64,000 bases of DNA from Verrucomicrobia bacterium UBA1200 (GCA_002309765.1 DBXY01000017.1:52820-116819); one strand, 5' to 3'; positions 3,437-53,815 are shown, counted from the first letter of the stretch. Translations and numbers: made by a program. Notes: a model not told the origin generated them from the letters alone.

Positions 3437-3441
3437 CTGGA

Positions 3442-5139
3442 CTACTCCGTAACTCTGAACTTGAAGCAGCGTGAGGTTGCTACCGAAATTCCGGTTTTAA
3501 TCACCCGGAGCCCTACCACCGCGTCGCCGGCGCTACCGGCCGGGAAAAGTTTCGGATCGGCTTTAAGCAAGAAACCCCGCCGACCGTTCTCGTCCGGCAT
3601 ATTGACCGTTACCTGCAACCCCGATTCCGGCCACACCACGTAAGGCTCGTAAATCTCCTCCCACGATTTGGTCATATACGGCGAAGAAACGTCCAGCGCC
3701 CCGCCGGCCTTGGCGGAGATTCTTGCCGTAAAGTTTGAAGCCACATTCAAAACGCGGAACTTTGCCACCCTGCCTAAGGCATAGTCAAGCCCCATCGCCT
3801 TGGGCAACGATTGGCCGTCACGCTCCTGCCGCACCGGCTCCACCGGACGGACAATGGTCTCGCCATTCACATTGGCGGACGCCGCCATATCCAGCGAGAA
3901 AGAAGTTTTCGGATAGCGGTGGCTATCGGTGGAAACCGTCATCACGCCCTTGCTCTCACCGGCGGGAATGTAGCCGCCCTCAAAGCAAATTCCCAACGGC
4001 GGGTAGCTCAAAAAAACCTGTATCGGCCCGGTATAGCCGTTCTGCCGTTCCGCTTGCAGCCACACCAATCCGCTGCCGCCGGCGGGAATACTGACCGACG
4101 CCGGCGACATCCAAACCCGGAAATCCGGGGCGGGCGGCAAATCGGAAATTAACTTGAAATCCAGTCCCGGCAAAGCCAGCGAATCACCAAAAATCGCCTC
4201 GCGGCACAGGGCTTCGTCCTTGCCGCCGGTAAATAGCCGGATCCGGTTTTGCGGCAGATTGAACCCGTCCAGCGACACGTTGGTACTGGAACCCTTTTTC
4301 GCCTCCGTCGGCGAGATGCCGGTGATAAGCGGTAGCTTTCCAAGCAGCACCCGGTAAACCGCCGAATTGATATTGTTGGTGACGGAAGTGCCAACCCGGA
4401 GTTTATAAACCCCGGTTTCGGGAATGGTCAACACCTTGGCGGACAGACCGCGGCCCAACTCGAATTTCTCCGATTTGCAAAGGCTGTCATCCGCCCCGTA
4501 GAAATTCAGTTTGGGAGTGGCCGATGAACTCGTAAACGGACGCGTTTGCCAGACCGGATAAGCCACAATCTGCTCGCCGGCAGTGGCTTGGAATCTGTAA
4601 AAATCCGCACTTTTACGGGTCAATCCGGCGCTACCGTTTAGGCACACCGGCAACGGCCCCGCGTCCCGGACACTGGACCGGTCTCTTGCGGTAATCGGCT
4701 CCGTCAATTCGCGCATCGCCCGGACATCGAACATCAGCGGTTCGCAAATCCGGACCGGATTGCAAATACGCAACTCCCTGATCCCCGGTTTCGCGTCAGG
4801 CTCAATGACCACTTTGAACCGATGGACCGGCAAACGCGCCTTGACAAGGTTGGTTTCGGATGTTCTCCCGATATAAACCGCGCGAACCCCCTCGCCGCTG
4901 ACAATGGCGGAATTCACCGTTTCCAAATTCACACCGCCCACCCGGACTTCGAACTCGCTTCCAGGCTCGCCCCCGGAAGGATAGACGTAATTGCATTGCG
5001 GCGAGATGGTCTTGTGCATGGGTGGGGAAAACGCCAACGCCGTGCCCAAGCCGGCAAAACCCGCCGCCCAAATTACGGTGCGACGGATTCTCCTGGCTAA
5101 TGCAAGGTCAATTCGTTTATTGCGAGTGGTCATCATCAA
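3442..5139 (-). CDS. Exported protein of unknown function with beta-sandwich (Ig-like) segments and a PPC-like segment
   Basis: 565 aa. N-terminal anchor/signal (RRTVIWAAGFAGLGTALA). One segment resembles a pre-peptidase C-terminal domain (SADFYRFQATAGEQIV). Gaps of 16 nt to the upstream transglutaminase-like gene and 5 nt to dxr. Confidence 0.5.
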   Translation of the reverse strand: MMMTTRNKRIDLALARRIRRTVIWAAGFAGLGTALAFSPPMHKTISPQCNYVYPSGGEPGSEFEVRVGGVNLETVNSAIVSGEGVRAVYIGRTSETNLVKARLPVHRFKVVIEPDAKPGIRELRICNPVRICEPLMFDVRAMRELTEPITARDRSSVRDAGPLPVCLNGSAGLTRKSADFYRFQATAGEQIVAYPVWQTRPFTSSSATPKLNFYGADDSLCKSEKFELGRGLSAKVLTIPETGVYKLRVGTSVTNNINSAVYRVLLGKLPLITGISPTEAKKGSSTNVSLDGFNLPQNRIRLFTGGKDEALCREAIFGDSLALPGLDFKLISDLPPAPDFRVWMSPASVSIPAGGSGLVWLQAERQNGYTGPIQVFLSYPPLGICFEGGYIPAGESKGVMTVSTDSHRYPKTSFSLDMAASANVNGETIVRPVEPVRQERDGQSLPKAMGLDYALGRVAKFRVLNVASNFTARISAKAGGALDVSSPYMTKSWEEIYEPYVVWPESGLQVTVNMPDENGRRGFLLKADPKLFPAGSAGDAVVGLRVIKTGISVATSRCFKFRVTE

Positions 5140-38080: not shown

Positions 38081-38157
38081 GGACTTTTCCTTTCTTGGGC
38101 TGTTGAACGTATTAGGCACATGCGTAATCCTCTTAACTGTGAGAACTTCGTATATCC

Positions 38158-38197
38158 CGATATTTTCAAGTGGCACTTGAAAATATCGGTTAAAAAC
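38158..38197. promoter_or_regulatory. 40-bp palindromic element, copy 1 (CGATATTTTCAAG-TGGCA-CTTGAAAATATCG followed by GTTAAAAAC)
   Basis: Perfect 13-bp inverted arms. It lies 78-117 nt upstream of the GH63-like ATG. A third half-site, TTGAAAAT, is at 38225-38232. A near-identical copy is at 48233-48272. Confidence 0.6.
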
Positions 38198-40856: not shown

Positions 40857-40943
40857 TTTGTCTTGTCCTTTTTACGTTTTGCATTGCCGCTTCTTGGGGA
40901 AACAGCTGCAACTTCCGCCAGTACCCCTTAACAAATAACTTAT

Positions 40944-40969
40944 ATTATACCCCCCCCCCTCCTTGTCAA
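40944..40969 (-). promoter_or_regulatory. Consensus -35/-10 promoter whose 14-bp spacer is mostly a G10 homopolymer (candidate phase-variable promoter)
   Basis: The minus strand reads TTGACA-AGGA-GGGGGGGGGG-TATAAT. -35 at 40964-40969, C10 on the plus strand at 40950-40959, -10 at 40944-40949. It lies 88 nt upstream of the ATG at 40856. Confidence 0.6.
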
Positions 40970-41114
40970 TTATAAAATGTAAAAAAAATATGGTCGCTCA
41001 ATGCCCCAATCCGAGGAGCCGGGAGAACGGAACGATTGCACGGCGAACGCGCCGTTCGCCGTGTCGTTGCTGGATGTTAGATAACCCCACATGCCACTTT
41101 TCCGATTCCAACAC

Positions 41115-41450
41115 CTAGATATCTCCCGTCCTGATTGGCGTCTTGCATCTTAAATTAGGACGCCACGCCGACGTATCCTCGATCGCAAACAGCCGTTTCA
41201 ACGCATTAATGTACGAAGATACCGTGTCAACCGAAATCGGCGCAGCTTCGTTCGCCACCAAGTCGGCCTTAATAACCGAAACCGCCGATTGCGTTGCCTG
41301 AAGCCGTGCACAGGAGCGCATGAGCCGTCTGGCCCGGCTTTCATTCCTCTCCACACCGTCCACCCGCGAAATGTCACGTTTAACGACTGCATCAAGATAG
41401 GCAAAAGCCCTTCTGAGTGCTGTCCACCCCGTCAACTTGTACTGTTTCAT
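41115..41450 (-). pseudogene. Internal fragment of an AAA-ATPase/DUF4143-family gene
   Basis: A 111-aa ORF (RRLMRSCARLQATQSAVSVIKADLVANEAAPISVDTVSSYINALKRLFAIEDTSAWRPNLRCKTPIRTGD) matches the middle of DUF4143 ATPases (about 400 aa). The N-terminal ATPase domain and the C-terminal third are missing. Confidence 0.65.
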
Positions 41451-41667
41451 GCGGGATTTGTAACTTTTTCTTTATTTCGATGCAACCGCAATTCCGTAAT
41501 TTGTTGGATTATTGTTCCTCAATTTGTTGGCGGAAAAAATCAAGTGCCGCCGCGGTTTTCCAATAATTATATTTACCGATTTTGATGTTAAATCCGGGCA
41601 TTTGTCACAATTTTAGATGGAATGATGTTAATAAACCAAACCACATAAGTTGACCAACAAGTCATGA

Positions 41668-41697
41668 TTGACACAAGATGCCAACACATGTTAATAT
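41668..41697 (+). promoter_or_regulatory. Sigma70-like promoter for vapBC (TTGACA-18-TGtTAATAT)
   Basis: TTGACA at 41668-41673 and TAATAT at 41692-41697, preceded by TG (extended -10). It lies 27 nt upstream of the vapB ATG, which has a GGAGG RBS. Confidence 0.55.
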
Positions 41698-41723
41698 ATG
41701 GCGTTTTCAAGGAGGATTCTATC

Positions 41724-41954
41724 ATGCAGACAGTAATGAACGTAAACGAAGCGAAAGCTAACTTTTCCGGAATGCTTTCCGAGGTGGAATCGGGTCTCGT
41801 CTCGTTCACTATAATGAGATACGGACACCCGATTGCAAAACTCGTCCCGATCGAACGAACCCGTAAAATACGCCCGCTGTCCGGTTATGGCTCGAAGATA
41901 GCGATCAAAGGAGATCTCTTTTCCGACGACTCCGCTTTGTGGGAGAATGCCTGA
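41724..41954 (+). CDS. vapB: Type II antitoxin, Phd/YefM family
   Basis: 76 aa from ATG 41724, with GGAGG 8 nt upstream. MQTVMNVNEAKANFSGMLSEVESG..FTIMRYGHPIAKLVPIE is the Phd/YefM N-terminal fold signature. Its stop overlaps the vapC start (TGATG). Confidence 0.85.
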   Translation: MQTVMNVNEAKANFSGMLSEVESGLVSFTIMRYGHPIAKLVPIERTRKIRPLSGYGSKIAIKGDLFSDDSALWENA

Positions 41955-42337
41955 TGCGTTATCTGCTCGACACCTGCGCACTAATCTGGCTCGGTATGGG
42001 CGGTGGAGACCTTAGCGCCGACGCCCGTAGGCGCATTTCCGTAGCCTCCGTACTCCATTATTCATCCATATCGGTTTGGGAAGTCGCACGTCTTATGAAA
42101 GATGGCAAAGTCATCATCCCTAACAACGTTGACAACTTTATTGCCGACCTTAAAGAACAATACGGAATCGCCGTCATTCCGCCAACGGATGACATCATGA
42201 TCCGTGCCGCCCAGCTTCCGGATTTTCACAAAGACCCTGCCGATAGAATTATCATTGCCACTTCGCTGGTCTATGATTTGACGATCGTGACCGGTGACGG
42301 CAAGTTTCTTCAATACGGCGTCAGAACCATCTGCTGA
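41954..42337 (+). CDS. vapC: Type II toxin VapC (PIN-domain ribonuclease)
   Basis: 127 aa from ATG 41954. MRYLLDTCALIWL (first acidic residue), SVWEVARL, DPADRIIIATS and IVTGDGKF give the PIN-domain pattern. Confidence 0.9.
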   Translation: MRYLLDTCALIWLGMGGGDLSADARRRISVASVLHYSSISVWEVARLMKDGKVIIPNNVDNFIADLKEQYGIAVIPPTDDIMIRAAQLPDFHKDPADRIIIATSLVYDLTIVTGDGKFLQYGVRTIC

Positions 42338-42362
42338 AAACGCCAGCCGCCGGAAAAGAAAA

Positions 42363-42393
42363 GCCGAGACGGCCTAAAAAGACCGCGCCCGGC
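42363..42393. terminator. Imperfect GC hairpin between convergent vapC and the adhesin remnant (bidirectional terminator candidate)
   Basis: GCCGAGACGG-CCTAAAAAGA-CCGCGCCCGGC, flanked by an A-run upstream and TTT downstream. A homologous hairpin is at 48511-48541. Confidence 0.45.
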
Positions 42394-42411
42394 TTTAAGA
42401 CCGAATACCTT

Positions 42412-42534
42412 TTAGCGAAAATTCATAATCGTCGAAACATCTAGCCGGATGAACCGGCGCCCGTCACCCGTCTTGCAGAATACGTCGACGATGCCGTTCT
42501 TCTCAAGGGAAGTGCGCGGCGGCAGTTCGGCGAC
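42412..42534 (-). pseudogene. Remnant: last ~40 codons of a paralogue of the 1751-aa surface-protein gene
   Basis: The minus strand translates ...VAELPPRTSLEKNGIVDVFCKTGDGRRFIRLDVSTIMNFR*. Compare ...TGEIPPLVNLDIKNGMVRIWRDVSTIMILR* at the end of the 48560-53815 gene. No upstream coding continuation. Confidence 0.6.
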
Positions 42535-42553
42535 ATGTACTCGACATCGGTTA

Positions 42554-43669
42554 TCACCTGGCCGTCCGGCACGAAATCTTGCTGAGCGTACAGGGGAAGT
42601 CGGTCTTGGTGTTGACCTTGTCCGGGGAGACTACGGCGTCGAAGTTCGAGATGACCAGATGGCCATGCCAGATTATCGGCTCGCCCGGCTGGTTCAACCC
42701 GCCGTTCAGCCCGTTGCCGTCGGGATCGCGCCGGATGACACTGATCTTTCCCTCCGGAGTGACCTTGGCGATGGCGTTGTTGGAAAAGTCGGCGACATAG
42801 ATGTTGTCACGGCTGTCCACGCAGATACCGTCGGTCGTCCGCATCTTCGTCTTCACCGCGCGGTCGATAAACCCCTTCGCAGCGGGATCGCCGTAATCGA
42901 AATCGGTCTTCGCAAAGAGGGTGTTGGAGGTGACCCTGCCCTCGGCGTCGAAGGTGACGCGGTGGAGCGTGCCGTCGCCGAAGTTGCCGACGAAGAGGTT
43001 GCCCTTGCTGTCGAAGACGATTCCGTCGAGACCGTACTGGCAATACGGGTTCTGTGTGACGAAGGTCAGGATCAGCTGCGGATCCTCTTTCGTGTTCTTG
43101 ACGGTGATATCCTTGTCGGTCGGGTTGAAGCGGTAGACGCCGCTCACCAGTTTGCCCGAAGGATCCTTGATGGCGGAGAGGCAGCTCTGGGTGACATAGA
43201 GTTTGCCGTTGTGGTAGCGGACACCGTTGGGATGCTCCATCCCGCGCGCGATTACGACGTAATCCGCCAGCTTGTCGTCCTTGAAGTTCAGGCGCAGCAG
43301 ACGGCCCTCGTTCTTGCCCTTCTCCGTGCCGGACCACCCCTGGTTGTCGCAGACGTACAGCTCGCCCTCCGGCCCGAAGCAGATGCCCATCGGAGCGGCG
43401 AGGCCGGTCTTCTCCAGCGTCGGAACCAGCGCCCAGCGGTAAGGAGTGCCGCCCGGCTCATCCAACCGGAAAAGCGCGGCCGGCTGTTTGGTGTCGTTGT
43501 AGTTCGGCGCGGCGATCACCAGCCGCCCCTTCGCGTCAATCGCCATCCCGTCCGGCGTCGTGCATGTCTCCGGAAAAACGGCGAACGGCTTCCCGCCGCA
43601 ACACGGACAACAACACCCCGCCAACAGGACGGACCCCAGTAAACCCATCATCAAGCCGAATCTGTTCAT
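42554..43669 (-). CDS. SMP-30/gluconolactonase/LRE-like beta-propeller lipoprotein
   Basis: 371 aa. Lipoprotein-type signal MNRFGLMMGLLGSVLLAGC followed by CCPCCGG. Blade motifs GPEGELYV, DSKGNLFV, DSRDNIYV. Paralogue of the 35070-36152 product. Confidence 0.7.
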   Translation of the reverse strand: MNRFGLMMGLLGSVLLAGCCCPCCGGKPFAVFPETCTTPDGMAIDAKGRLVIAAPNYNDTKQPAALFRLDEPGGTPYRWALVPTLEKTGLAAPMGICFGPEGELYVCDNQGWSGTEKGKNEGRLLRLNFKDDKLADYVVIARGMEHPNGVRYHNGKLYVTQSCLSAIKDPSGKLVSGVYRFNPTDKDITVKNTKEDPQLILTFVTQNPYCQYGLDGIVFDSKGNLFVGNFGDGTLHRVTFDAEGRVTSNTLFAKTDFDYGDPAAKGFIDRAVKTKMRTTDGICVDSRDNIYVADFSNNAIAKVTPEGKISVIRRDPDGNGLNGGLNQPGEPIIWHGHLVISNFDAVVSPDKVNTKTDFPCTLSKISCRTAR

Positions 43670-43739
43670 TCTAATTCTCCTTCGTTGCGCTCAACCACAA
43701 GACATCGGACATCGGGCACCAGACTTCCGGCACCGAATC

Positions 43740-43767
43740 CCTAAAACCTGACACCTAACACCTCAAT
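43740..43767. repeat. Four tandem heptamers (CCTAAAA CCTGACA CCTAACA CCTCAAT) spanning the deoC stop codon
   Basis: Read directly from the sequence. CTGACACCTAACACC (43748-43762) recurs as CTGTCACTAACACC at 45507-45520, just upstream of the ADH start. Confidence 0.55.
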
Positions 43768-44447
43768 TGCTTCAGCTCCTCGACGATCGCCACGCCGGCA
43801 CTGGTCCCGATTCGCGTGGCACCCGCGCGAATCATCTCAAACGCCGATTCCAGCGTCCGGATCCCGCCGGCCGCCTTGACGCCCATCTCGGGGCCGACCG
43901 TCCGGCGCATCAGGGCGATATCCGCCGCCGTCGCGCCGGCCGTTCCGAACCCGGTCGAGGTCTTGACGAAATCGACCCCCGCCTTCACCGCCAGCTCGCA
44001 GGTACGCACCTTCTGCTCATCGGTGAGGTAACATGTCTCTAGGATCACCTTGGAGATCACGCCGCGCGCGCGGCAGACATCCGCCATGTCCTTCAGCTCC
44101 GCGAACACCAGCGCGTCATTCCCGGCCTGAAGGGCACGGACGTTCTGGACCATGTCGATCTCGCCCGCGCCCTTGTCGATCGCGTCACGGATCTCGAACG
44201 CCTTTGCGGCGGATGTCATCTGGCCGAGCGGGAAGCTAATCGCGGCACCCACGCGGACTTTCGTCCCCTTAAGCAGCTCGACACACCGCGTCACCTCAGA
44301 CGGGTTAATCGCCACCATCGCGAAGCCGTATTCACGAGCTTCAGCGCAAAGCTTTTCGATCGGCTCCGGTCCGCCAAAAGGTTTCAGGAAGGTGTGGTCG
44401 ATCATCCCGGCGAGTTCGGCGGGCGTTATCGTCTCAACGTCATACAT
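43755..44447 (-). CDS. deoC: Deoxyribose-phosphate aldolase family (DeoC-type class I aldolase)
   Basis: 230 aa. IDHTFLKP, KVILETCYLTDEQK, DFVKTSTGF (Schiff-base Lys context) and VKAAGGIRT are the DeoC signature series. Confidence 0.85.
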   Translation of the reverse strand: MYDVETITPAELAGMIDHTFLKPFGGPEPIEKLCAEAREYGFAMVAINPSEVTRCVELLKGTKVRVGAAISFPLGQMTSAAKAFEIRDAIDKGAGEIDMVQNVRALQAGNDALVFAELKDMADVCRARGVISKVILETCYLTDEQKVRTCELAVKAGVDFVKTSTGFGTAGATAADIALMRRTVGPEMGVKAAGGIRTLESAFEMIRAGATRIGTSAGVAIVEELKQLRC

Positions 44448-44459
44448 GGTTGGCTCTCC

Positions 44460-45479
44460 CTAGAACGTCATCAGCACCTTGAGCGCCTCGCCCGACTTGA
44501 CGGCGGCGAGCGCCTTCTCCAGATCGGCGATGTTGAAGCGGTGGGTCACAAACTCGTCCGCGCTCAACTTGCCCTCTTTAATCCACTGGCAGATCGGCTC
44601 CATCGCCAGCCGCTCGCGCCAGCGGGTCGGCCACTGGTGGATGATTAAGTTGAAGTTGTAGGGACCCTTCCCCTTCTCGACCGTCAGGACCGGCTGGGAG
44701 ATCACGCCGTAGACGCCGATCGTCCCGCCAAGCTTAATCATCGGGATCGCGGCGTTGACGATCTTCTCGCTACCGACCGCATCGACGATCACATCGAAGG
44801 TCGAGGCCGGGAAGTTCACCTCCTCCGGCGCAAAGACGGCGTCCGCGCCCATCTCCAGTGCCCGCGCGCGCTTGTTCGGGTGCGGATCGACCAGCCCCAC
44901 CCACTTCACACCCATCAGTTTGGTGAACTTCACAAAGCTCATCCCGACCGGCCCCGCGCCATAGATCAGAATCTTGTCCTTGGGTTGGATGCTAAAATCG
45001 CCAATCCCGCCGTAGACCTCGCGCCAAGTGCAGAGCAGTGCGCCCGCATCGGCGCTGATCCCCTCGGGGACGGCGCGCTGGATCTCGCAGCTGTCAAACC
45101 AGCCGTGTTCCGCGTCCGCCACGCCGTCGCGAACCATCGCATCATGGTCGTGGACAATGACATACTCGCAGAATCCGCCCCATCCGGATGCGATGCCGGT
45201 GTCGCCGAAGTCCGAGACCATCCCGCCAATCACCCGGTCTCCGGGCTTGAACTGGGTCACCTTCTCGCCGATTTCCACCACGATCCCGGCATCTTCATGG
45301 CCCAATGCCATCGGATACTTCTCCATGCCGGGGAAGTGGCCTTCGATCAACTTGCTGTCGGTCGAATTGCAAAGCGCCATCACCTCTGTCTTGACCAACG
45401 CCTGATACGGACCAGGTTTCGGGGTCGGAACCTCCTGAATCTCCATCATACCCGGACGGGGAATCACCATCGCTTTCAT
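44460..45479 (-). CDS. Zn-dependent medium-chain alcohol/polyol dehydrogenase
   Basis: Start at ATG 45479 (MKAMVIP), with AAAGGAA upstream. CNSTDSKL (Zn Cys), GHEDAGIVVEIG and the GAGPVGM Rossmann motif. Confidence 0.85.
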   Translation of the reverse strand: MKAMVIPRPGMMEIQEVPTPKPGPYQALVKTEVMALCNSTDSKLIEGHFPGMEKYPMALGHEDAGIVVEIGEKVTQFKPGDRVIGGMVSDFGDTGIASGWGGFCEYVIVHDHDAMVRDGVADAEHGWFDSCEIQRAVPEGISADAGALLCTWREVYGGIGDFSIQPKDKILIYGAGPVGMSFVKFTKLMGVKWVGLVDPHPNKRARALEMGADAVFAPEEVNFPASTFDVIVDAVGSEKIVNAAIPMIKLGGTIGVYGVISQPVLTVEKGKGPYNFNLIIHQWPTRWRERLAMEPICQWIKEGKLSADEFVTHRFNIADLEKALAAVKSGEALKVLMTF

Positions 45480-45523
45480 CGCACTTTCCTTTCTCTTGCC
45501 AATCATCTGTCACTAACACCTGT

Positions 45524-45558
45524 CGTTGAGCGTTGAGGGTTGAGCGTTGAGGGTTGAG
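45524..45558. repeat. Five tandem heptamers (CGTTGAG CGTTGAG GGTTGAG CGTTGAG GGTTGAG) in the kinase-ADH spacer
   Basis: Read directly from the sequence. On the mRNA (minus) strand they read CTCAACC/CTCAACG x5. Confidence 0.7.
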
Positions 45559-45612
45559 AGAACGTCATTCGCCAGTCTTCAATGTTGTCAGTGGGACACG
45601 CGACAAGCGAAC

Positions 45613-45684
45613 GACATTCGACATCCGTCATCCCATTCTTCACTCTTCATTCTTCATTTTTCATTCTCTCTCGTCACTCGTCAC
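45613..45684. repeat. Eight tandem 7-nt units (GACATTC GACATCC GTCATCC CATTCTT CACTCTT CATTCTT CATTTTT CATTCTC) plus TCGTCAC x2
   Basis: Read directly from the sequence. On the mRNA strand an AUG/GUG triplet recurs every 7 nt, so it cycles through all three frames. The last TCGTCAC unit contains the kinase stop codon (45681-45683). Confidence 0.7.
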
Positions 45685-47207
45685 TTCCCCTTAGCCAACT
45701 CGCCATACACCTCAACCAGCCCGCGGTAAGCCTTCACGATCACAGCTTGCCGGTCACGGTAAAACGCAACATGTTCCGGAACCGGCCGCACCGTCTCGGC
45801 GGTCTTCAGCAGGTCATCCACGACATCAAAATTAGGGAAGATCCCGCAGGCCACGCCGCCGACGATCGCCGCGCCCATCGAGGTCGCCTCGGCCGTCGAT
45901 TGGAGCGTGTGGACCGGGCACCCGCAGGCGTCCGCCAGAATCTGCCGCAGTACCCGGCTCTGGGCGCCGCCGCCGATGATCCGCAATCCGTCATCGAACG
46001 AAACATGTTTCCGGAAGATATCGACGATGTACCCCAGGTTCATCGCCACCCCCTCCAGCACGGCCCGCAGCATATCGGCGCGTTTCGTCGCGAGGTTCAA
46101 TCCGATAAAGGCCCCGCGCGCGTCGGGATTCCACCAGGGCGTCCGCTCCCCCAGCATGTACGGTAGGAAAATCACCCCGTTCGCCCCGACCGGCGCCGCC
46201 TCGGCCTTCACGTCAATCAGCGCGTACTTCGAGACGCCGATCCGTTCGGCCTCGGCGGCCTCCTCGGCGCAAAGCTGTTCGGCGAGCCACTTGAAACTCG
46301 ATCCGGCGGTCTGCATCGTGCCCGACGGGTGGAGGTAGCCGGGCACACAGTGCGCCCAGTTCATCGTCCGCATCTCCGCGTCCACCACCGGCTTCGTCAC
46401 CGTGAGCCCGATCCAGCTGGAGGAGCCCATGCAGTTGTAGGCGGAACCGGGCCGCACGCAACCCACGCCGACCCCCGCCGCGCTCCCGTCGCCCCCGCCC
46501 GCCGCCACCGGCGTTCCCTCCAGCAGACCGGTCGCGGCGGCGGCCTCGGCCGTCAACCCGCCAAGAATGGCGGTGGACGGCAACGCCTCCGGGAAGAGGG
46601 ATTCCGGGATCTCCGCGCAGGCCAGCACCTCCTTCGACCACTTGAAGGTGTTGATGTCGAAGGCGTTGGTTCCGCTCGCGTCGGAGTAGTCGGTCGCCAT
46701 GCGTCCCGTCAGCCGGAAGTTGATGTAGTCCTTGGCGCAGAAGGTCTTGTCGGTCTTGGCGAAGACCTCCGGCTCGTGCTCGCGCAGCCACATCAGCTTT
46801 TCGAGCGAGTACGACGCGCTGACCCGGTGGCCGACGATCCGGTAGAAGTCCGCCTGCGGAATCTGCGCCAGAATCCGGTCCGCCTCGGCCGTCGCCCGTT
46901 GGTCGCAATAGAGCATCGAGGGCCGGAGCGCGTTCCCTGCCGCGTCAACCGGCGTGCAGCCCATCATCTGACCGCTCAGCGCGACCACCGCGATCTCGGA
47001 CGGTTTAACGGCGGCGCACTCCAGCAGGAGACGCGTCGATTCGCACACCGCCCTCCACCAATCCTCCGGATCCTGCTCCGCCCAGCAGCCGTTGAAGAAA
47101 TGGGAGTCATATGAGGCCAGAAAACTTCCGCAGGCGGTTCCGTCGGCGGCGTAGAGCGTCGCCTTGTTCCCGCTCGTCCCCAAATCGTGCGCCAGAATAT
47201 ACGGCAT
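45681..47207 (-). CDS. FGGY-family carbohydrate kinase (xylulokinase-like)
   Basis: 508 aa. N-terminal HDLGTSGNKA phosphate-1 motif, GGGDGSAAGVG, FLPYMLGERTPWWNPDARG and GGGAQS are typical of FGGY kinases of the XylB type. Confidence 0.88.
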   Translation of the reverse strand: MPYILAHDLGTSGNKATLYAADGTACGSFLASYDSHFFNGCWAEQDPEDWWRAVCESTRLLLECAAVKPSEIAVVALSGQMMGCTPVDAAGNALRPSMLYCDQRATAEADRILAQIPQADFYRIVGHRVSASYSLEKLMWLREHEPEVFAKTDKTFCAKDYINFRLTGRMATDYSDASGTNAFDINTFKWSKEVLACAEIPESLFPEALPSTAILGGLTAEAAAATGLLEGTPVAAGGGDGSAAGVGVGCVRPGSAYNCMGSSSWIGLTVTKPVVDAEMRTMNWAHCVPGYLHPSGTMQTAGSSFKWLAEQLCAEEAAEAERIGVSKYALIDVKAEAAPVGANGVIFLPYMLGERTPWWNPDARGAFIGLNLATKRADMLRAVLEGVAMNLGYIVDIFRKHVSFDDGLRIIGGGAQSRVLRQILADACGCPVHTLQSTAEATSMGAAIVGGVACGIFPNFDVVDDLLKTAETVRPVPEHVAFYRDRQAVIVKAYRGLVEVYGELAKGK

Positions 47208-47216
47208 GGCTTCCCC

Positions 47217-47702
47217 CTAGTTGAAAAGTTTCGCGCCGGAGAAGCCGATCAGGCCGGTCAGCACCCCGCCCAGAATTCCGCCGAGCAGCGCCCAGAAGAT
47301 GCGCGGCAGACTCTCCTTCACCAGCGCGCCGCGCGTACCGCGCTTCGCGCCCACCAGCCCGTGTACCCAGAAACCGCAGAAGATCGCGCTGCCCATATCG
47401 ACCCACGGGCTCGCCGCGTAGAAGGCCTGGTTGATCAGGCCGAACTGCTGGACATTCCCGTCCGCGTCCTTGATCTGGTCGGGGTTGATCCCGAATCCCG
47501 GCAATTTGTGGTTCAGCAGCCAGAAGGTCCCGATCAGGAACGCCGCGCTGATGAAACCGCCGATTGGCCCAAAATCCTTCACCAGCTTCGGCCAGCATAT
47601 CAGCACCGCGAAAGTCGCGATGAACGCACCGAAGATCGATGAGATGACCGAGGCGGGCGTCATGCCCCACACTTCACTATACGTTGAAAGAAATTCCGTC
47701 AT
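47217..47702 (-). CDS. Small 4-TM membrane protein, paralogue B (candidate transporter subunit)
   Basis: Start at ATG 47702, with GAGG 7 nt upstream. About 161 aa with four hydrophobic helices. It shares the motif GGF(I/L)(S/T)A(A/T)F(L/V)IG..W..NH with the upstream gene. 9-nt gap to the kinase gene. Confidence 0.7.
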   Translation of the reverse strand: MTEFLSTYSEVWGMTPASVISSIFGAFIATFAVLICWPKLVKDFGPIGGFISAAFLIGTFWLLNHKLPGFGINPDQIKDADGNVQQFGLINQAFYAASPWVDMGSAIFCGFWVHGLVGAKRGTRGALVKESLPRIFWALLGGILGGVLTGLIGFSGAKLFN

Positions 47703-47710
47703 CCCGTACC

Positions 47711-48136
47711 TCACGCTTTCGTCTCATCTCGCCACGCGGGCACCACCTGTTTCGCGATATGGGCCGCCACGCCCGCCAGCGACCCGCCAATGATGCAGCA
47801 CACCAGCGTCGGCCAAATCTTTGCGAGCGCGCCCCAGCAGTACGACCAGCCGCAGGCCGAGGGGTCCAGCGGCCAAAACCGGACAACGCCCCACGCGACA
47901 CCCGCGCCAAAGATCGGCAACCCCTGGTCAACCCAAAGTTTCCCGTCGGGATTCTCAATCACCCCCAGCCAATGGTTCATATACCACGAAATCCCGATAA
48001 CGAACGTCGCCGTCAGGAAACCGCCCATGATGCCATACGTTTTCCACATCTCCGGCCAAACCCCGAACGAGAGCGACCCGACAATCGCCCCGCCAATCAG
48101 AGTGGTCAGACTCCGTTTCCAGCCACCTTTGTCCAT
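47711..48136 (-). CDS. Small 4-TM membrane protein, paralogue A (candidate transporter subunit)
   Basis: 141 aa with four hydrophobic helices. MGGFLTATFVIGISWYMNHW parallels IGGFISAAFLIGTFWLLNH in paralogue B. AGGAAAGGGG RBS region upstream. Confidence 0.7.
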   Translation of the reverse strand: MDKGGWKRSLTTLIGGAIVGSLSFGVWPEMWKTYGIMGGFLTATFVIGISWYMNHWLGVIENPDGKLWVDQGLPIFGAGVAWGVVRFWPLDPSACGWSYCWGALAKIWPTLVCCIIGGSLAGVAAHIAKQVVPAWRDETKA

Positions 48137-48167
48137 TCACATACCCCTTTCCTAATTTTCTAAACCC

Positions 48168-48197
48168 ATTTTACCCGCAAACCTCCCCAAAAGGCAA
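48168..48197 (-). promoter_or_regulatory. Sigma70-like promoter candidate (TTGCCT-18-TAAAAT) for the six-gene operon
   Basis: -35 at 48192-48197 and -10 at 48168-48173 on the minus strand. The -10 ends 31 nt upstream of the ATG at 48136. Confidence 0.4.
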
Positions 48198-48232
48198 GCC
48201 AAAAAAAGAAGCATCGGTATTCGGGCGAATCT

Positions 48233-48272
48233 CGATATTTTCAAGTGCCACCTGAAAATATCGGTTAAAAAC
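48233..48272. promoter_or_regulatory. 40-bp palindromic element, copy 2 (CGATATTTTCAAGTGCCACCTGAAAATATCGGTTAAAAAC)
   Basis: 38 of 40 nt identical to 38158-38197, in the same orientation relative to the downstream minus-strand gene. It lies 97-136 nt upstream of the ATG at 48136. Confidence 0.6.
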
Positions 48273-48340
48273 CGCACATCCGCGATGGCGGAGAAACCAG
48301 TCGGCACAACCGCCGCCACGAAGGCGAAACCCCCGGAAAG

Positions 48341-48484
48341 ATCATGATTCGTGCCGCCCAGCTTCCCGACTTTCAAAAAGACCCTGTCGATAGAATTATT
48401 ATTGCCACTTCGCTGGTCTATGATTTGATGATCGTGACCGGTGACAGCAAGTTTCTTCAATACGGCGTCAGAACCATCTGTTGA
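48341..48484 (+). pseudogene. vapC 3' fragment (last 47 codons plus stop), with no start codon and no antitoxin
   Basis: Translates IMIRAAQLPDFQKDPVDRIIIATSLVYDLMIVTGDSKFLQYGVRTIC*. There are 4 aa differences and 9 nt differences from the intact vapC (42194-42337). Confidence 0.85.
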
Positions 48485-48510
48485 ACACGCCTGCCGCCTG
48501 AAAAGAAAAA

Positions 48511-48541
48511 GCCGGGGCGGCCTAAAAAGACCGCACCCGGC
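48511..48541. terminator. GC hairpin downstream of the 1751-aa gene and the vapC fragment (bidirectional terminator candidate)
   Basis: GCCGGGGCGG-CCTAAAAAGA-CCGCACCCGGC, flanked by an A-run and TTT. Confidence 0.45.
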
Positions 48542-48559
48542 TTTAAAACCGAATCCCTC

Positions 48560-51500
48560 TTAGCGGAGAATCATAATCGTCGAGACATCGCGCCAGATAC
48601 GGACCATTCCGTTCTTGATGTCAAGATTCACCAGCGGGGGAATTTCGCCCGTCACCTCGAAGTCGTCTGCCGTAAGCGATGTTGTCGCCTCCGTAAGATC
48701 GATGAGGTTGCGCGTGCCATTGAAGGACGAGAGCTCCAGTTTCACCTTGCCGTTCGCGCGCACATCGCCCACCAGCTTGAGAATACCAGTGGAAGAATCG
48801 AACGAAATCGTGTCCCCGAGAATGATCGGCACAGCGGCGGCCGACGAGACCGTCGCTCCGCCCGAAAGCGTCGTGCCAGCCAGTTCAACCGCCGGGGCGG
48901 ATGCCGAAGCGATTGAGAGATTTGCGCCATCTTGCAGGATCAAATCGGAGAAACCTACCGTGCCCATGCCGAGATTCATCTGCACCGCGCCATCAACCAC
49001 GAACGGGTTGGCATAACGCGAGAGATCCATCTCCTCGTATGCAAACGAGAAATCGTACACAATCTGGCAGGCATACGATCCGCCCGTCGCGCCCGTGAAG
49101 CCGATCCACGCCGTGTTGTCACCCATTACCGCCGCCAAATTGACTTCGCGCGAGGCGGAAACGGAGGAATTGCCACGGGTCGCCGTCAGCGTCAGCTCGC
49201 GCAAATCGTACGACAGCGTGAATTCGGTGTCTTCGCCGTTAGCGAGATCCCATGCCGTAAGGGGCACGGTATCGCCGGAGAAGAGGCCGTCCAACACATA
49301 CTTGAAGCACTGGTCGTTTTGGCTCGGGTAGAGGTTGATACCCCAGCCCGCCGTCTTCGTGCGATCGGAGCCATCGTTATAGACGATGCCGAGTTTTCCG
49401 CCCGTCTGACCGTAGCAGTCCGCCGCGTTGGACGAGAAGTTCTGTAGAACGATCGCCATGCCGTCCGCCGGAGAGGCACTGTGCTGGGTTACGCGATACT
49501 TGAAGGACGCACGGAAAGGACGGTTTACATATACGCGCGTCGAGTTCCAGGTCGCACTCCGGGCGTAGTCCACATTCGCCGTTAACTGGAACGCCGGCTT
49601 GTCATCGACCGTCGTGTAGGTCGGCGCGTATTTCGTAGGCGTCCAGCCCGTTTCGCCGATGCCGGGAATGCTTGATCCATCCGCGATGCTGCGGAACGAG
49701 AAGCCGCTGATCGTCTGCTCGCATCCGGTCGAAGCGCCTGTGGTACCCGTGAAGCCGATCCACGCGTATTCGCTGCCGAGAATTGACTTGAGGTCAACCG
49801 TCCATGTCATCGGGCCACTTGTCGGGCGAACGGTACCGTTGCAATCCCACGACGCACTAAGGACCGCGCCGTCATAGCTTACGGTAATCTTGATCACGTT
49901 GCCGCCATCGGCCGCGATAGCGTTGGAGCGCGAGGAGGTGTCATCCGAGATCGTGCCGGCATTGCTGAAGCCGTAACGGTCACGGGTATCGGATTCGATA
50001 CCGACACGCATGATTACACCAATCGACTTGGTAAAGGCGCACCCCAAAGTCGAACCCGACGATGCGCTGCCAATCGCGTTTGGTCCCGCCGCTTCGTTCT
50101 GCAGGACGAGCGCGGCACCGAGCAGATCCGTCGTCCAATCGTCATGTTCTCCCGCCTGATAGGAGAAGGTTACCTGCCAAGGATCGGTCACGCGCACGCG
50201 CCGGGAGTAGAACGCCGACCCCACATTCGCTGTCGCATACGGAGTCAGCTTCAGATTACCCTCGGAAATCGCCGTGCTGCCGTTGAGCAAGAACTGGTCG
50301 AATCCGTCAATCTGGTTTACAATACCGCTACCGAGCGTTACGCTCGATCCGTCATCGAGACGCACTTCGGTCTTATCGCTGAAGGCCGGCATATCAATGC
50401 CCAGCGAGGCGCCGTCCAGGATCTCAAAGTCCGGGTTGCCGACAAGGCGGGCCGCGTCGAGATCGGTCGTGCCGGAAACAACGAAACGCCCGGAACCGGA
50501 AATAGCTCCGGTACCCAGTAGGTCGAACGAATCGAGGAAGACCTCACCGTTGTTGCGGAAGGTTGACGTGTTCGCCAGATTAACACCGTCAGCGAAAACG
50601 AGCGTTCCGGCTTCGACGGAGGTCGAACCCGAATAGGTCTGGGATTTAGTGAGCGTCATACGCCCTTCGCCCTGCTTCTCTAGGCTGCCCGTTCCGGAAA
50701 TGACGTCATTGAACGTATCGTCACCCGAGTTTTTGAGGATCACCTTGCCGGGAGTGGAGATACCGTCCGTCGAGGCCCACGAGAAGTTCACGTCGCCACC
50801 GATCGTCAACACCTGATTGGCTTGGGTTACCGTCACCGGACCTTGGAAGGTGTTGTTGGCGCCCGACAGAATGATATAGCCGCCGTCGGTGATTTGGACC
50901 GGTCCGGCGCCAGTCAAGCCGCCGGGGATTTCCATTGAGTAGGTACCCCAAGGATGGAGTATCGCGCCGTCCGGACCGACCTTAACGCCGCGCGTCGGGG
51001 CAAGGGAGAAAACGGTGTTACCGTTGCGGAGGATACCGCCGTTGATGTAGATGTTGTCCTCATCGAACTCCGCCGGGATGGCACCGAATCCGTCCGCCGT
51101 CACGAAGACGGTACCGCCGTCGAGAATCGACGTGCCGCCGGAATAGGTGTTTGCCGTATTTGAAAGGTTGACGATACCGACCGTCCCCACCTCAACGCGA
51201 GCCGCACCGGCGGAATTGTCCGACAAAACGGAGGGCTGGAAGCCCGGATTGCTCGTCTGATAATACGGCACGGCGCCGCCGCCGAGCAGGAAGACGTTAT
51301 CGACGCCCGGGAAAATCGAACCCGTCTGAGTCATTACCGAACCGGTCTTGTCGGTACCAAGGCGACAGCCGGGGAAACGGGAAAGATCGACGCTGCAGTT
51401 CGCGGAGTTGTCGGTGAGCAGAATCGTCGCCGGCTTGGAGCCTTCGGCAATCCGCGAAGTGAAGAAGGTCGCGCCCACAAGCGCGTCAAGTTTGAAAGCG

Positions 51501-53815
51501 GTACCTTCTGCGAAATAAAGCTTCGTCAAGTCTGGGTTGCCCGCCGCATACGACGAGCCGGAAATGCCGAGGATGCCTTTGTACACGCTGATGTTGCCGC
51601 TCATGCCGTCGTTGAGACCGGAGAGCGTTACGCCGTCCGTATCTGTCTCGCCGTAGATTTCGACTGACGCTGGCAACCCGTCCCTGTCGGAGATGTTGCC
51701 GGCATAGACCATAAGGCCATTGGTGGGGCGGAAGATGTACTTATTCTGGTAAGGTGTTATCGTTCCCGTATAAGTAAAGGTGCCGTCGGGAACGATGGTA
51801 AGCCCGGGATACTCGGAGAAGTTGAGAGACTCCGCCGCATTGTTGCCGTGAAGGACGAATACGCCCACGGAAGTCTTGTCGATGCGAGACAGAAGCTCTG
51901 CCGCTCCGCCCGCGTAATCGGCGCTAACCGCACCGCCTTCCAGTTTGAACGTAGCCGCGTTGTTTGCGACCAGCGCGGTGGCGCTGCCGATTGTCAAACG
52001 GCCCTCTTTGACAATGAACGTCGAAGAAAGATTACTCGGCGATTCCGTATCGTTGGGCAGGAGAATCAGCGTGCCTTCGCCAATCTTGACGATCTCCGCC
52101 GCACCGCCCTCCGTCAAATCGTGGATGGTGGTCCGGATTGTGGAACTCAAGTCCGCCGGGACATCGAACGTCACCCTGTTCTTGATGTTGAAAATGACGG
52201 GCGGCTCGACCAGCGACGTGCGCTGGCGCTGGATGCAGATGGTCGCGTCATCGATGTTGACCGTACCCGTCGTGGTGGTGGCGTTGCCCTCGACACGCAA
52301 AATGGAGTTGTTTAACACCGAGCCAGGATGGAGGTTGAGCGTGCCGGAACCCGCCGCCGAGTTCGCCGTGAGATAAATATTCGGCGTTGTGTCGGGCGTA
52401 CCGCTTGTGAACGTGCCATACACGTCGAGCACGCCCGTTCCCGTACCAGAGCAGATGTACGAGGCGCCAAAAACGGTTAGTTCGCCGCCCGGTTCGACCG
52501 TGACAAGACCTTGGGCGTCATCGCCGTCGGCGATGCGGAACGTGCTCTCGACACTCACGACACCGTTCGTCTTGATGGTCAGGTCGCCCGAGCTTCCGGG
52601 ATATTGCCCCACGCGCAGGGAGCCGCCGCGGATGGTAATGGCTCCCACGGCGTCCGCGAGGCCGCCCACCACGCCAACGCCCGTGTTGTAGGGGCCGCCG
52701 ATCGTGAGCGAGTTGGCCGCGGTCGCAAATTCGCCGTTCGGAATAGTGAGCGAGAACGTGCCGCCAGCCCTGTTGCCAAGCTCGACGGTGCTGTTGTTGC
52801 TAGCGACTGTCAGCGTGCTGCCGTTGTCGATCGTCAGGCCGGTGTTCTTCGAGGCGTTCACCGTCAGGAAGTGCACGGCGTTGCTTGCGCCGTTGTCGAT
52901 CACGAGCGGCTGGTCGCCCTCGATAATAAGGTTGTCGTCAAGCGCGAGCGCCTTGCCGTTGTACCAAGTCGCGCCGTCCGTCCAGAGCGTGTCGGGCGTG
53001 TCAGTCACGCCGTAATACGCCTTCTCTGCGTTGTAGTTACTGATTACCTGCGCGGCCGTGAGCGCCCCCGTCTGGATGCGGAGATGGCCGTAGTCAGCGT
53101 AAGGCTGGCGTTCCCAGGACGAGCTGGAGACTTTATAGATGCCCGAGATGATGATGTAGCTCGGATCTTCGTTGGTCAGGTTGAGGATGGTGTTGCCCAC
53201 CGAGGTGAGGCAGCCGTTCAGGTAGACCCGCTCATAGCCCGACGCCTCGTGGACCAAACAGATGTGGTACCAGTTGTTGGGCTGGGGGCGGTATTCGCCC
53301 TGGTTGCTACGGCCCCAGTAGAGGTTGTAGGTGTTGTGGTCCACGGCGGCGTTGCTGTTGTCGATGCGGAATGCCGCGCGCGTCAACGCCTCGGCTGCGG
53401 CGTCGGAGACCTTGTAGTACGTCGAGAAACTCAGGAAGTAGCGCGTGCTCTGGTCCTGCGTCGGCGCGATCCAGGCCTCGACCGTCCAGGGGTTGTTGCC
53501 CGCGAGCGAATCTGGCGTGGGCACGCCGTTCGTCATGCTGCCCGTGCCCGAACCCGCGAAGCGCACCGCCGCCGCGCCGTTGCGAAAACGGTAGGTCGGC
53601 CGCGTGTTCTGATTGTGAGTGTTGACATGGGCGAAATCGGGCATGGTTCCGGCATTGGGCCACAGTTCCACATTGTTGCCCTCCTCATACCCCGTCAACG
53701 TCGATGCGTCGAGATCCACCAGCAACTCTCCGGCGGTCTCAAGCTCCACCGCGCCAAGCGTCAGCGCAAAAAGCGCCACCACGCCGCTCAAACATTTCAA
53801 GCCAGTCATAGACAA
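48560..53815 (-). CDS. Giant (1751 aa) exported surface protein: N-terminal LamG-like domain, beta-helix with autotransporter-associated repeats, two L-type-lectin-like domains
   Basis: Signal peptide MSMTGLKCLSGVVALFALTLGA. LamG-like N-terminus (approximately 53125-53728). KIGEGTLILL and EKQGEGRMTLTKSQTYSGSTSVEAGTLVF repeats. Lectin-like AWIGFTGTTGAS / AWIGFTGATGGS. C-terminus ...RDVSTIMILR. Confidence 0.8.
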   Translation of the reverse strand: MSMTGLKCLSGVVALFALTLGAVELETAGELLVDLDASTLTGYEEGNNVELWPNAGTMPDFAHVNTHNQNTRPTYRFRNGAAAVRFAGSGTGSMTNGVPTPDSLAGNNPWTVEAWIAPTQDQSTRYFLSFSTYYKVSDAAAEALTRAAFRIDNSNAAVDHNTYNLYWGRSNQGEYRPQPNNWYHICLVHEASGYERVYLNGCLTSVGNTILNLTNEDPSYIIISGIYKVSSSSWERQPYADYGHLRIQTGALTAAQVISNYNAEKAYYGVTDTPDTLWTDGATWYNGKALALDDNLIIEGDQPLVIDNGASNAVHFLTVNASKNTGLTIDNGSTLTVASNNSTVELGNRAGGTFSLTIPNGEFATAANSLTIGGPYNTGVGVVGGLADAVGAITIRGGSLRVGQYPGSSGDLTIKTNGVVSVESTFRIADGDDAQGLVTVEPGGELTVFGASYICSGTGTGVLDVYGTFTSGTPDTTPNIYLTANSAAGSGTLNLHPGSVLNNSILRVEGNATTTTGTVNIDDATICIQRQRTSLVEPPVIFNIKNRVTFDVPADLSSTIRTTIHDLTEGGAAEIVKIGEGTLILLPNDTESPSNLSSTFIVKEGRLTIGSATALVANNAATFKLEGGAVSADYAGGAAELLSRIDKTSVGVFVLHGNNAAESLNFSEYPGLTIVPDGTFTYTGTITPYQNKYIFRPTNGLMVYAGNISDRDGLPASVEIYGETDTDGVTLSGLNDGMSGNISVYKGILGISGSSYAAGNPDLTKLYFAEGTAFKLDALVGATFFTSRIAEGSKPATILLTDNSANCSVDLSRFPGCRLGTDKTGSVMTQTGSIFPGVDNVFLLGGGAVPYYQTSNPGFQPSVLSDNSAGAARVEVGTVGIVNLSNTANTYSGGTSILDGGTVFVTADGFGAIPAEFDEDNIYINGGILRNGNTVFSLAPTRGVKVGPDGAILHPWGTYSMEIPGGLTGAGPVQITDGGYIILSGANNTFQGPVTVTQANQVLTIGGDVNFSWASTDGISTPGKVILKNSGDDTFNDVISGTGSLEKQGEGRMTLTKSQTYSGSTSVEAGTLVFADGVNLANTSTFRNNGEVFLDSFDLLGTGAISGSGRFVVSGTTDLDAARLVGNPDFEILDGASLGIDMPAFSDKTEVRLDDGSSVTLGSGIVNQIDGFDQFLLNGSTAISEGNLKLTPYATANVGSAFYSRRVRVTDPWQVTFSYQAGEHDDWTTDLLGAALVLQNEAAGPNAIGSASSGSTLGCAFTKSIGVIMRVGIESDTRDRYGFSNAGTISDDTSSRSNAIAADGGNVIKITVSYDGAVLSASWDCNGTVRPTSGPMTWTVDLKSILGSEYAWIGFTGTTGASTGCEQTISGFSFRSIADGSSIPGIGETGWTPTKYAPTYTTVDDKPAFQLTANVDYARSATWNSTRVYVNRPFRASFKYRVTQHSASPADGMAIVLQNFSSNAADCYGQTGGKLGIVYNDGSDRTKTAGWGINLYPSQNDQCFKYVLDGLFSGDTVPLTAWDLANGEDTEFTLSYDLRELTLTATRGNSSVSASREVNLAAVMGDNTAWIGFTGATGGSYACQIVYDFSFAYEEMDLSRYANPFVVDGAVQMNLGMGTVGFSDLILQDGANLSIASASAPAVELAGTTLSGGATVSSAAAVPIILGDTISFDSSTGILKLVGDVRANGKVKLELSSFNGTRNLIDLTEATTSLTADDFEVTGEIPPLVNLDIKNGMVRIWRDVSTIMILR
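49030..50304 (-). other. Two tandem legume(L-type)-lectin-like domains within the 1751-aa protein (approximate bounds)
   Basis: Each unit starts with a (F/A)xL(N/T)... stretch: VGSAFYSRRVRV..PWQVTFSY and ATWNSTRVYVNRPFRASFKY. Each contains GAALVLQN / GMAIVLQN and ends with AWIGFTG(T/A)TG...(F)SF. Confidence 0.6.

Follow-up and report, generated by a model that had tools for sequence, protein, structure and literature searches.

A doubled vapC-hairpin-adhesin junction around a resident sugar-catabolism operon of a rumen Kiritimatiellae bacterium, an unusually legible scar left by toxin-antitoxin turnover

This report concerns a 64,000-nt stretch of DNA from Verrucomicrobia bacterium UBA1200 (the window), in which a pair of diverged direct repeats flanks a six-gene sugar-catabolism operon in the same orientation. 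Each repeat copy joins the 3′ end of a vapC toxin gene, a spacer with a hairpin, and the tail of an adhesin gene. The left copy is called X_L and the right copy X_R, while adhesin1751 stands for the adhesin of 1751 aa and J1 for a join at 42580|42581. The window's lineage (W) was compared with partial loci from three outgroup lineages, namely T (L010-L013 and L016, including GCA_017958965.1), R (RGIG3692 and similar) and UBA1211. From left to right, the main features are as follows.

41649-42337, plus strand: vapBC module of ~690 nt, with promoter/operator, vapB (41724-41954) and vapC (41954-42337)
42194-42450, plus strand: X_L, with the final 48 codons of the complete vapC, spacer, hairpin, and the initial 39 nt of a tail resembling the adhesin's
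42360-42396, minus strand: left hairpin, with a minus-strand fold of -29.6 kcal/mol (z -2.7), followed by UUUUCUUUU; matched by the terminator scan
42412-42580, minus strand: decayed adhesin 3′-end stump of ~56 codons, ending ...LDVSTIMNFR*
42580-42581: J1, where the beta-propeller gene, without its native last ~6 codons, reads into foreign sequence
42554-48136, minus strand: six-gene operon, with the same genes in the same order in the relatives L022, L023, L025 and L164
48137-48214, minus strand: conserved operon upstream region, common to W, R and T; homology ends at 48211 (L010/L011/L016) or 48214 (L164)
48215-48340: W-specific filler without match to L010 or L164, holding a 44-nt palindromic element (48229-48272)
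48341-48598, plus strand: X_R, with a vapC stump (48341-48484), spacer, hairpin (48508-48544) and, from the complete adhesin gene, the final 39 nt
48560-53815, minus strand: adhesin1751, an intact lectin/PATR surface protein (Pfam Lectin_legB, Lectin_L-type_dom, Laminin_G_3 and PATR)

X_L and X_R form one alignment of 258 columns with 89.9% identity and one indel (E = 6e-97), and the repeat search, MAFFT and the blastn self-comparison agree on a doubled junction in the same orientation with reciprocal stumps, as had been claimed in an earlier note on this DNA (the original prediction). A blastn comparison of the window with itself found no third copy within the 64 kb. Identity decreases along the repeat. 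In the vapC part it is 135/144 nt, which is exactly the figure given before; spacer and hairpin have 65/74 identical positions plus one indel (88%), and the first 39 nt of the adhesin tail have 32/39 (82%). The longest exact block between the copies measures 34 nt (42300-42333). Repeats of 258 nt that share at most 34 identical bases in a row are therefore poor substrates for further recombination. The abrupt start of homology at 48341 was seen again in the right PIN C-terminal stump, and Pfam agrees with the proposed gene content (intact vapBC at the left, six genes between, stump and adhesin at the right). The outer ends proposed at 42534 and 48652 did not hold. DNA similarity past 42450/48598 is not significant, the local score being equalled in 7 of 500 shuffles, and what continues there is just a weak protein resemblance (AELPPRTSLEKNGIV vs GEIPPLVNLDIKNGMV) with a 12-codon indel.

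Metagenome runs were examined as Logan contigs (k=31 assemblies), and 12 runs were compared across the region. By exact-protein look-up, the left junction (vapC, stump, beta-propeller) was found in contigs L001 (97% identical), L002, L003, L022 and L164-L167, while L005 and, in part, L006-L009 contain the right junction (DUF6905a, stump, hairpin, adhesin). Both are present within the same samples, DRR855108 and SRR5324810. As both junctions recur in independent assemblies they are genuine, and an assembly chimera is ruled out. Most Logan contigs break at 42304/42329/42333 and at 48451/48476/48480, because these are edges of the 34-nt exact block in a k=31 graph where both copies are present.

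The left copy continues into what is predicted to be a complete type II toxin-antitoxin (TA) vapBC, with a full PIN domain, a small antitoxin gene upstream, and an overlap of stop and start. The PIN match of the left vapC is full-length (1-117/120, E 1e-14 in Pfam), the vapB stop and vapC start overlap as ATGA (41952-41956), and a promoter-like site precedes vapB at 41668-41697. The antitoxin is of the Phd/YefM type, its match to PhdYeFM_antitox (E 2e-5) lying below Pfam's cut-off. The right copy does not qualify as a vapBC, since its PIN domain is incomplete and a cognate antitoxin is absent. Its vapC stump of 46-48 codons covers only PIN profile positions 80-117, there is no vapB (Pfam), and four replacements (H>Q, A>V, T>M, G>S) occur at residues that are invariant among the 36 retrieved VapC homologues.

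Both hairpins have the properties of minus-strand intrinsic terminators, the left one now predicted to end the operon and the right one the adhesin gene. On the minus strand the right hairpin folds with -35.7 kcal/mol (z -3.8), while the plus strand of the left one is no better than shuffles (z -0.55); a U-run, UUUUCUUUU or UUUUUCUUUU, follows both minus-strand hairpins. The two stems differ by G-C to G-U changes on the minus strand, which preserve the predicted terminator function in both. The best protein match of the stump at 42412-42580 is adhesin1751 itself (score 52), followed by its orthologue in R (43), while the tails of other long open reading frames (ORFs) score at most 35. The possibility that the stump is a mere C-terminal tag shared by surface proteins was rejected, as the tails of other surface proteins score below adhesin1751. 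The R orthologue, P0122, has 95% identity over the queried C-terminal 502 residues, the whole gene ~86% in protein.

The decayed tail most probably extends as far as 42580|42581, where the beta-propeller gene is broken. In relatives the beta-propeller protein ends in ...CTLS(V/A)xPL(K/R), while in the window and in R it ends in ...CTLS|KISCRTAR, a new 9-residue C-terminus; DNA homology of the window to UBA1211 (L023) stops at 42581. A single illegitimate join at this position therefore fused the truncated beta-propeller gene to the decayed adhesin-like tail, the hairpin and vapBC.

The search returned 345 VapC homologues, each of ~127 aa. More distant vapBC homologues with 83-84% protein identity (L159-L163) lie in unrelated neighbourhoods, one of them a DUF499/YafQ region and another an HZS_alpha-like gene next to a GFO_IDH operon. 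At the DNA level they are homologous to the window exactly from 41649 to the vapC stop at 42337, and the ~690-nt vapBC module is therefore the relocating unit. Among the fetched loci that were compared, spacer, hairpin and tail are common to X_L and X_R only, lineage T sharing 21 nt past the vapC stop. The generic module ends at the vapC stop, yet spacer, hairpin and tail are doubled, and therefore the whole junction was duplicated, not the TA module alone.

To the left of vapBC lies an AT-rich islet with an internal fragment of a gene for a DUF4143 ATPase (41115-41450, minus strand; Pfam DUF4143, E 5e-9, profile positions 1-73 of 160). The fragment adjoins vapBC also in the R-type contigs L022 and L164-L167. 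In the islet, near 40944-40969, there is a G10 tract where the independent R-type assemblies L022 and L164 end (at 40965 and 40955), probably reflecting assembly difficulty at the homopolymer.

The four lineages W, R, T and UBA1211 are roughly equidistant, with 12-37% differences at four-fold sites, and mosaic. In T one reads the operon, 75 conserved nt, a further 200 nt, vapB and vapC in intact form, a convergent gene of 343 aa and a TSP3-repeat gene of 1197 aa. L010 1-1632 aligns with window 46584-48211 and L010 1833-2554 with window 41637-42358, while L010 2391-2554 aligns also with the stump at 48341-48505. Thus an intact vapBC in T occupies exactly the position of the window's stump, in the same orientation relative to the operon. 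What follows vapC in T is this unrelated 343-aa gene. The W-specific filler takes the place of ~760 nt in T, which comprise the spacer of 200 nt, the promoter of vapBC, vapB, and two-thirds of vapC from its 5′ end. In the ancestral layout of the clade, which T has kept, vapBC lies next to the operon and is divergent from it. The palindromic element in the filler, with 12-bp arms (CGATATTTTCA...TGAAAATATCG) and a fold z of -3.75, occurs a second time at 38154-38197, each time upstream of an operon. It is also found on several contigs of R-type metagenome runs with differing flanks, and could be an operator or a small dispersed repeat.

For R a continuous locus was obtained from L095 and L164, which overlap at 100% identity. 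It begins with the adhesin orthologue, a different hairpin, a hybrid sensor kinase, a response regulator, a binding protein, GH32 and MFS, and continues with a 967-aa LamG protein, a 612-aa protein, the operon, J1, the stump, the hairpin, vapC, vapB and the DUF4143 fragment. The operon is in the same place and orientation, only the left copy is found, and a 12.9-kb GH32 locus (L095 15251-25250 plus L164 1-6364) stands opposite 340 nt in the window, the breakpoints between W and R being at 48214 and ~48556. As R keeps the order of adhesin, operon, J1, stump, hairpin and vapBC without X_R, the linkage of operon and adhesin is older than the present state of the repeats. In UBA1211 (L023), FGGY, ADH, DeoC and beta-propeller genes are followed by a HAD hydrolase gene; no vapBC was found within 10 kb downstream of the beta-propeller gene, and the left copy is absent. 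The flanking genes of the three outgroups (UBA1211, T and R) lack homologues in other parts of the window, which makes the synteny of the far flanks uninformative.

When the copies are rooted on T, 8 derived sites in 144 nt are common to X_L and X_R, which are thus sisters. Eight changes fall on the X_R branch (4 synonymous and 4 replacements at invariant residues) and one on the X_L branch; counts this small do not suffice for a selection test, but they fit a stump that may be drifting as a pseudogene. The surroundings of X_L have a history of their own. The W and R versions of the operon genes differ at 12-22% of four-fold sites and those of the adhesin at 21%, but vapB and vapC together at just 1/101, and the near-identical tract extends from ~41830 to 42860. 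Other W-type strains show zero mismatches over 41600-42333 compared to 1-2% in the operon. Contig L001 carries a UBA1211-like patch of ~120 nt (42647-42770, ~15 SNPs) inside the beta-propeller gene, a mosaic that shows recombination between species-level lineages. Taken together, these data argue that the lineages recombine freely and that the left tract has spread among them recently. A gentler account of its uniformity is possible, as relatives without a lineage-specific segment have no diversity to contribute to it.

We tentatively consider the repeats to be the remains of two copies of one ancestral unit, consisting of adhesin 3′ end, terminator hairpin and convergent vapBC, that flank a resident operon; we would give this a probability of roughly 45%. 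On the best reading of these comparisons, the right copy is the decayed resident vapBC, the one that neighbours the operon in T. A deletion took its promoter, vapB and the first 80 vapC codons, leaving 126 nt of unrelated filler, and the remaining stump drifted afterwards. The left copy represents the same junction a second time, attached to the opposite end of the operon via one novel join. In its simplest form, for which our confidence is just as limited, this would be a segmental duplication by tandem duplication of [adhesin tail, hairpin, vapBC, operon], which would create exactly one join, of the adhesin tail to a truncated beta-propeller gene. A single novel join of this kind is found at J1, where an adhesin-like tail is fused to the beta-propeller gene. 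Two reductive deletions would follow, one removing the redundant second operon copy and the other cutting down the redundant right vapBC, which would lead to the present state with a single intact vapBC left.

Several points weigh against this scenario. There is no remnant of a second operon to the left of vapBC, as 41451-41636 is without homology to the operon upstream region, and the tandem form therefore needs a clean deletion. Among the relatives that were fetched, none has two intact vapBC copies around the operon. The tail has diverged far more (82% identity over 39 nt, then undetectable, with a 36-nt indel) than the vapC part (94% identical), a contrast not expected from one duplication with uniform decay afterwards. 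The apparent recent exchange of the left copy between lineages would blur its place of origin and, as the four lineages are about equally distant and mosaic, parsimony on three relatives is weak.

The steep divergence of the tail and the recent exchange are better accommodated if two separate loci were involved. The left unit would then come from another full-length vapBC/adhesin locus, either a paralogue or the orthologue from a different lineage, would have undergone its own trimming, and would have either been brought next to the operon or entered this lineage by homologous recombination, while the right unit decayed independently. Divergence climbs as constraint falls (6% in vapC, 12% in the hairpin, 18% in the tail and then undetectable), as expected of two long-lived functional loci. 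The left tract, nearly identical between lineages that are ~17% apart at four-fold sites elsewhere, must have moved recently, and the vapBC module occurs in several unrelated contexts. This has to be set against the sister relationship of X_L and X_R relative to T, a spacer and hairpin that occur in no other fetched locus, a stump that is best matched by adhesin1751 itself, and a second full-length locus that is absent from all fetched contigs. We regard two separate loci, the main rival, as rather unlikely. The original prediction had named a similar alternative, two vapBC/adhesin units each trimmed by a separate event; its notion of two trimmed units comes close to the account that we favour, while separate origins rank below segmental duplication.

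A different emphasis would treat the vapBC tract (~0.7-1.2 kb, ~41830-42860, with the join to the beta-propeller gene) as a selfish allele that currently sweeps species-level lineages of rumen Kiritimatiellae by homologous recombination, its arrival allowing the resident vapBC to be deleted (anti-addiction through a second copy of the antitoxin); this is speculative, and we would not expect it to be correct. In a still bolder variant, the repeats may mediate rare excision of the operon, without an integrase, as a 6.1-kb circle, restoring a vapC-hairpin-adhesin site.

In the original prediction, everything between the repeats was an insertion into an ancestral convergent vapC/adhesin junction. 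A circle with the operon plus a junction fragment would have entered by a single crossover (Campbell-type integration), which produces both repeats at once. Same-orientation repeats with reciprocal stumps are exactly the topology of such a product, and a T-like donor could supply a circle of operon plus stump. In addition, contig L004 (6190 nt) has a 30-nt terminal overlap and represents a closed cycle of 6.16 kb that contains the operon and a single hybrid repeat, whose vapC part is right-type and whose remainder, beginning with the stop codon, is left-type. However, the switch lies inside the 34-nt exact block, the sole one of at least 31 nt, and the nearest diagnostic single-nucleotide polymorphisms (SNPs) are 36 nt apart, therefore no 31-mer separates the hybrid from a parental copy and assembly at k=31 cannot resolve it. 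In the run of L004 the cycle (depth 7.7) is covered as deeply as the adhesin flank (8.0), and the vapBC flank is fragmented into contigs of 220-380 nt at 3-6x. On these grounds L004 was rejected as evidence for a circle, tandem array or amplification, and we read it as a tip-clipped k=31 graph cycle. A closed "circular" k=31 contig is to be expected wherever two repeat copies share an exact block of at least 31 nt.

Other evidence also speaks against an integrated circle. Joints that skip or re-enter the 6.1 kb were found in none of the 12 metagenome runs, with the limit that these are contigs and rare molecules could escape, and depth is flat. An empty site, that is an uninterrupted vapC-hairpin-adhesin junction, was found neither in R, T or UBA1211 nor in these runs. 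The operon is not foreign. Its composition is native-like (GC 0.62, third-position GC (GC3) 0.77-0.86, a tetranucleotide distance exceeded by 11% of controls), and the compositional outlier is the vapBC islet at 40857-42553 (GC 0.49, with 1% of controls as distant). The operon is already linked to vapBC and adhesin in relatives; T has it beside an intact vapBC, R has the left copy only and UBA1211 lacks the left copy. These observations largely agree with what the original prediction had itself named as refuting an insertion. No integrase, transposase or recombinase was detected in the neighbourhood by Pfam, as the original prediction had already stated for integrases, and the plasmid and phage collections gave no match. 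Campbell-type integration also needs more events than the alternatives, and is very unlikely. Most improbable of all is templated repair, by which an R-like layout lost the 12.9-kb GH32 locus and was mended off the left copy via tail homology, making X_R a copy of X_L: W and R indeed have the same flanks and differ just in what these enclose, 340 nt in W and 12.9 kb in R, and the adhesin tail within X_R is almost identical to the R-type tail, but the intact vapBC of T at the same position and orientation, with 21 nt past the stop shared with X_R, would be a coincidence, and 8 private changes in X_R show that it is no recent copy.

The resident operon itself has the following genes (Pfam assignments).

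47711-48136, minus strand: DUF6905a
47217-47714, minus strand: DUF6905b
45681-47207, minus strand: FGGY kinase
44460-45506, minus strand: Zn-ADH
43755-44447, minus strand: DeoC
42554-43669, minus strand: SGL/NHL beta-propeller

In distant relatives from Kiritimatiellia, Verrucomicrobia and Lentisphaerae (L037, L041, L042, L044, L046, L049, L087) the order is beta-propeller, DUF6905a, DUF6905b, FGGY, ADH, DeoC. The window's clade has the beta-propeller gene at the end and not at the start, which amounts to a circular permutation of the gene order. A connection between this permutation and the repeats was rejected, as L023 and L025 are already permuted and L023 is without the left copy; the permutation is older than the repeats. 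When metagenome contigs were scanned for DUF6905a, relatives were found at no more than 85% identity, in other contexts and with no vapBC nearby.

Some variation within the operon was observed in passing. The FGGY/ADH spacer (45515-45815) consists of heptamer repeats whose word depth reaches hundreds to thousands in every run; all k=31 assemblies break there. It varies by strain, a stretch of 157 nt within it giving way to 23 nt in two runs, with indels of 5, 14 and 16 nt. A 9-nt in-frame insertion (CTTCCCGCC) at 43588, near the 5′ end of the beta-propeller gene, results in 374 instead of 371 residues and is carried by L004 and by contigs of the runs X5, X7, X8, X10 and X13. In UBA1211 (L023 2524-3653) a pair of overlapping ORFs (2524-2922 and 2745-3647) takes the place of a single beta-propeller gene, due to either a frameshift or an assembly error.

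Four kinds of known systems are close to this locus. It resembles the flexible or replacement genomic islands that lie between conserved flanks in closely related strains, in that the adhesin stop and the operon upstream region are constant and the contents between them differ by lineage (340 nt, a 12.9-kb GH32/sensor-kinase/MFS locus, an intact vapBC), but the window's slot differs in being very small and in having neither a tRNA gene nor a recombinase.

Duplication-remodelling, in which a tandem duplication with a single novel join is followed by reductive deletion, has been studied in Salmonella and Acinetobacter. Common to both are the one join (42580|42581), which connects the end of a segment to its start, copies in the same orientation and one unit apart, and the loss of one redundant copy. 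Here, though, divergence between the copies amounts to 10%, which makes this an old event instead of a transient amplification, and neither a remnant of a second operon nor an intermediate was found. Campbell-type single-crossover integration, as in lambda and suicide plasmids, leaves an insert bordered by direct repeats of the homologous sequence and, at either end, by a gene copy that is truncated. Direct repeats around an "insert" and a gene truncated on each side are seen here as well, with the difference that the window's "insert" is native and already the neighbour of vapBC in relatives. This calls for caution, as a Campbell-like topology of direct repeats and reciprocal stumps can have resident DNA inside and newcomer repeats.

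One recent study describes chromosomal TA modules as acquired stepwise into high-turnover spots, with short-lived linkage to their neighbours and loss by deletion or toxin pseudogenisation (Belot et al. 2026, Mol Biol Evol, PMC13617665). The locus matches this: vapBC sits in a high-turnover spot, the same module occurs in unrelated neighbourhoods, its linkage to neighbours does not last long, and loss is by deletion and pseudogenisation. What distinguishes the locus is that an eroded and a live sister copy coexist 6 kb apart with the same terminator and adhesin tail, and as the sisters keep the same flanks the turnover event is directly readable. Since relatives show the operon to be native, the locus is an ordinary, if unusually legible, scar of TA turnover in a flexible genomic slot of a rumen Kiritimatiellae genome, and neither a new mobile cassette nor a new mechanism. 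It provides a natural example of chromosomal TA turnover, in which three related lineages show alternative states of one slot.

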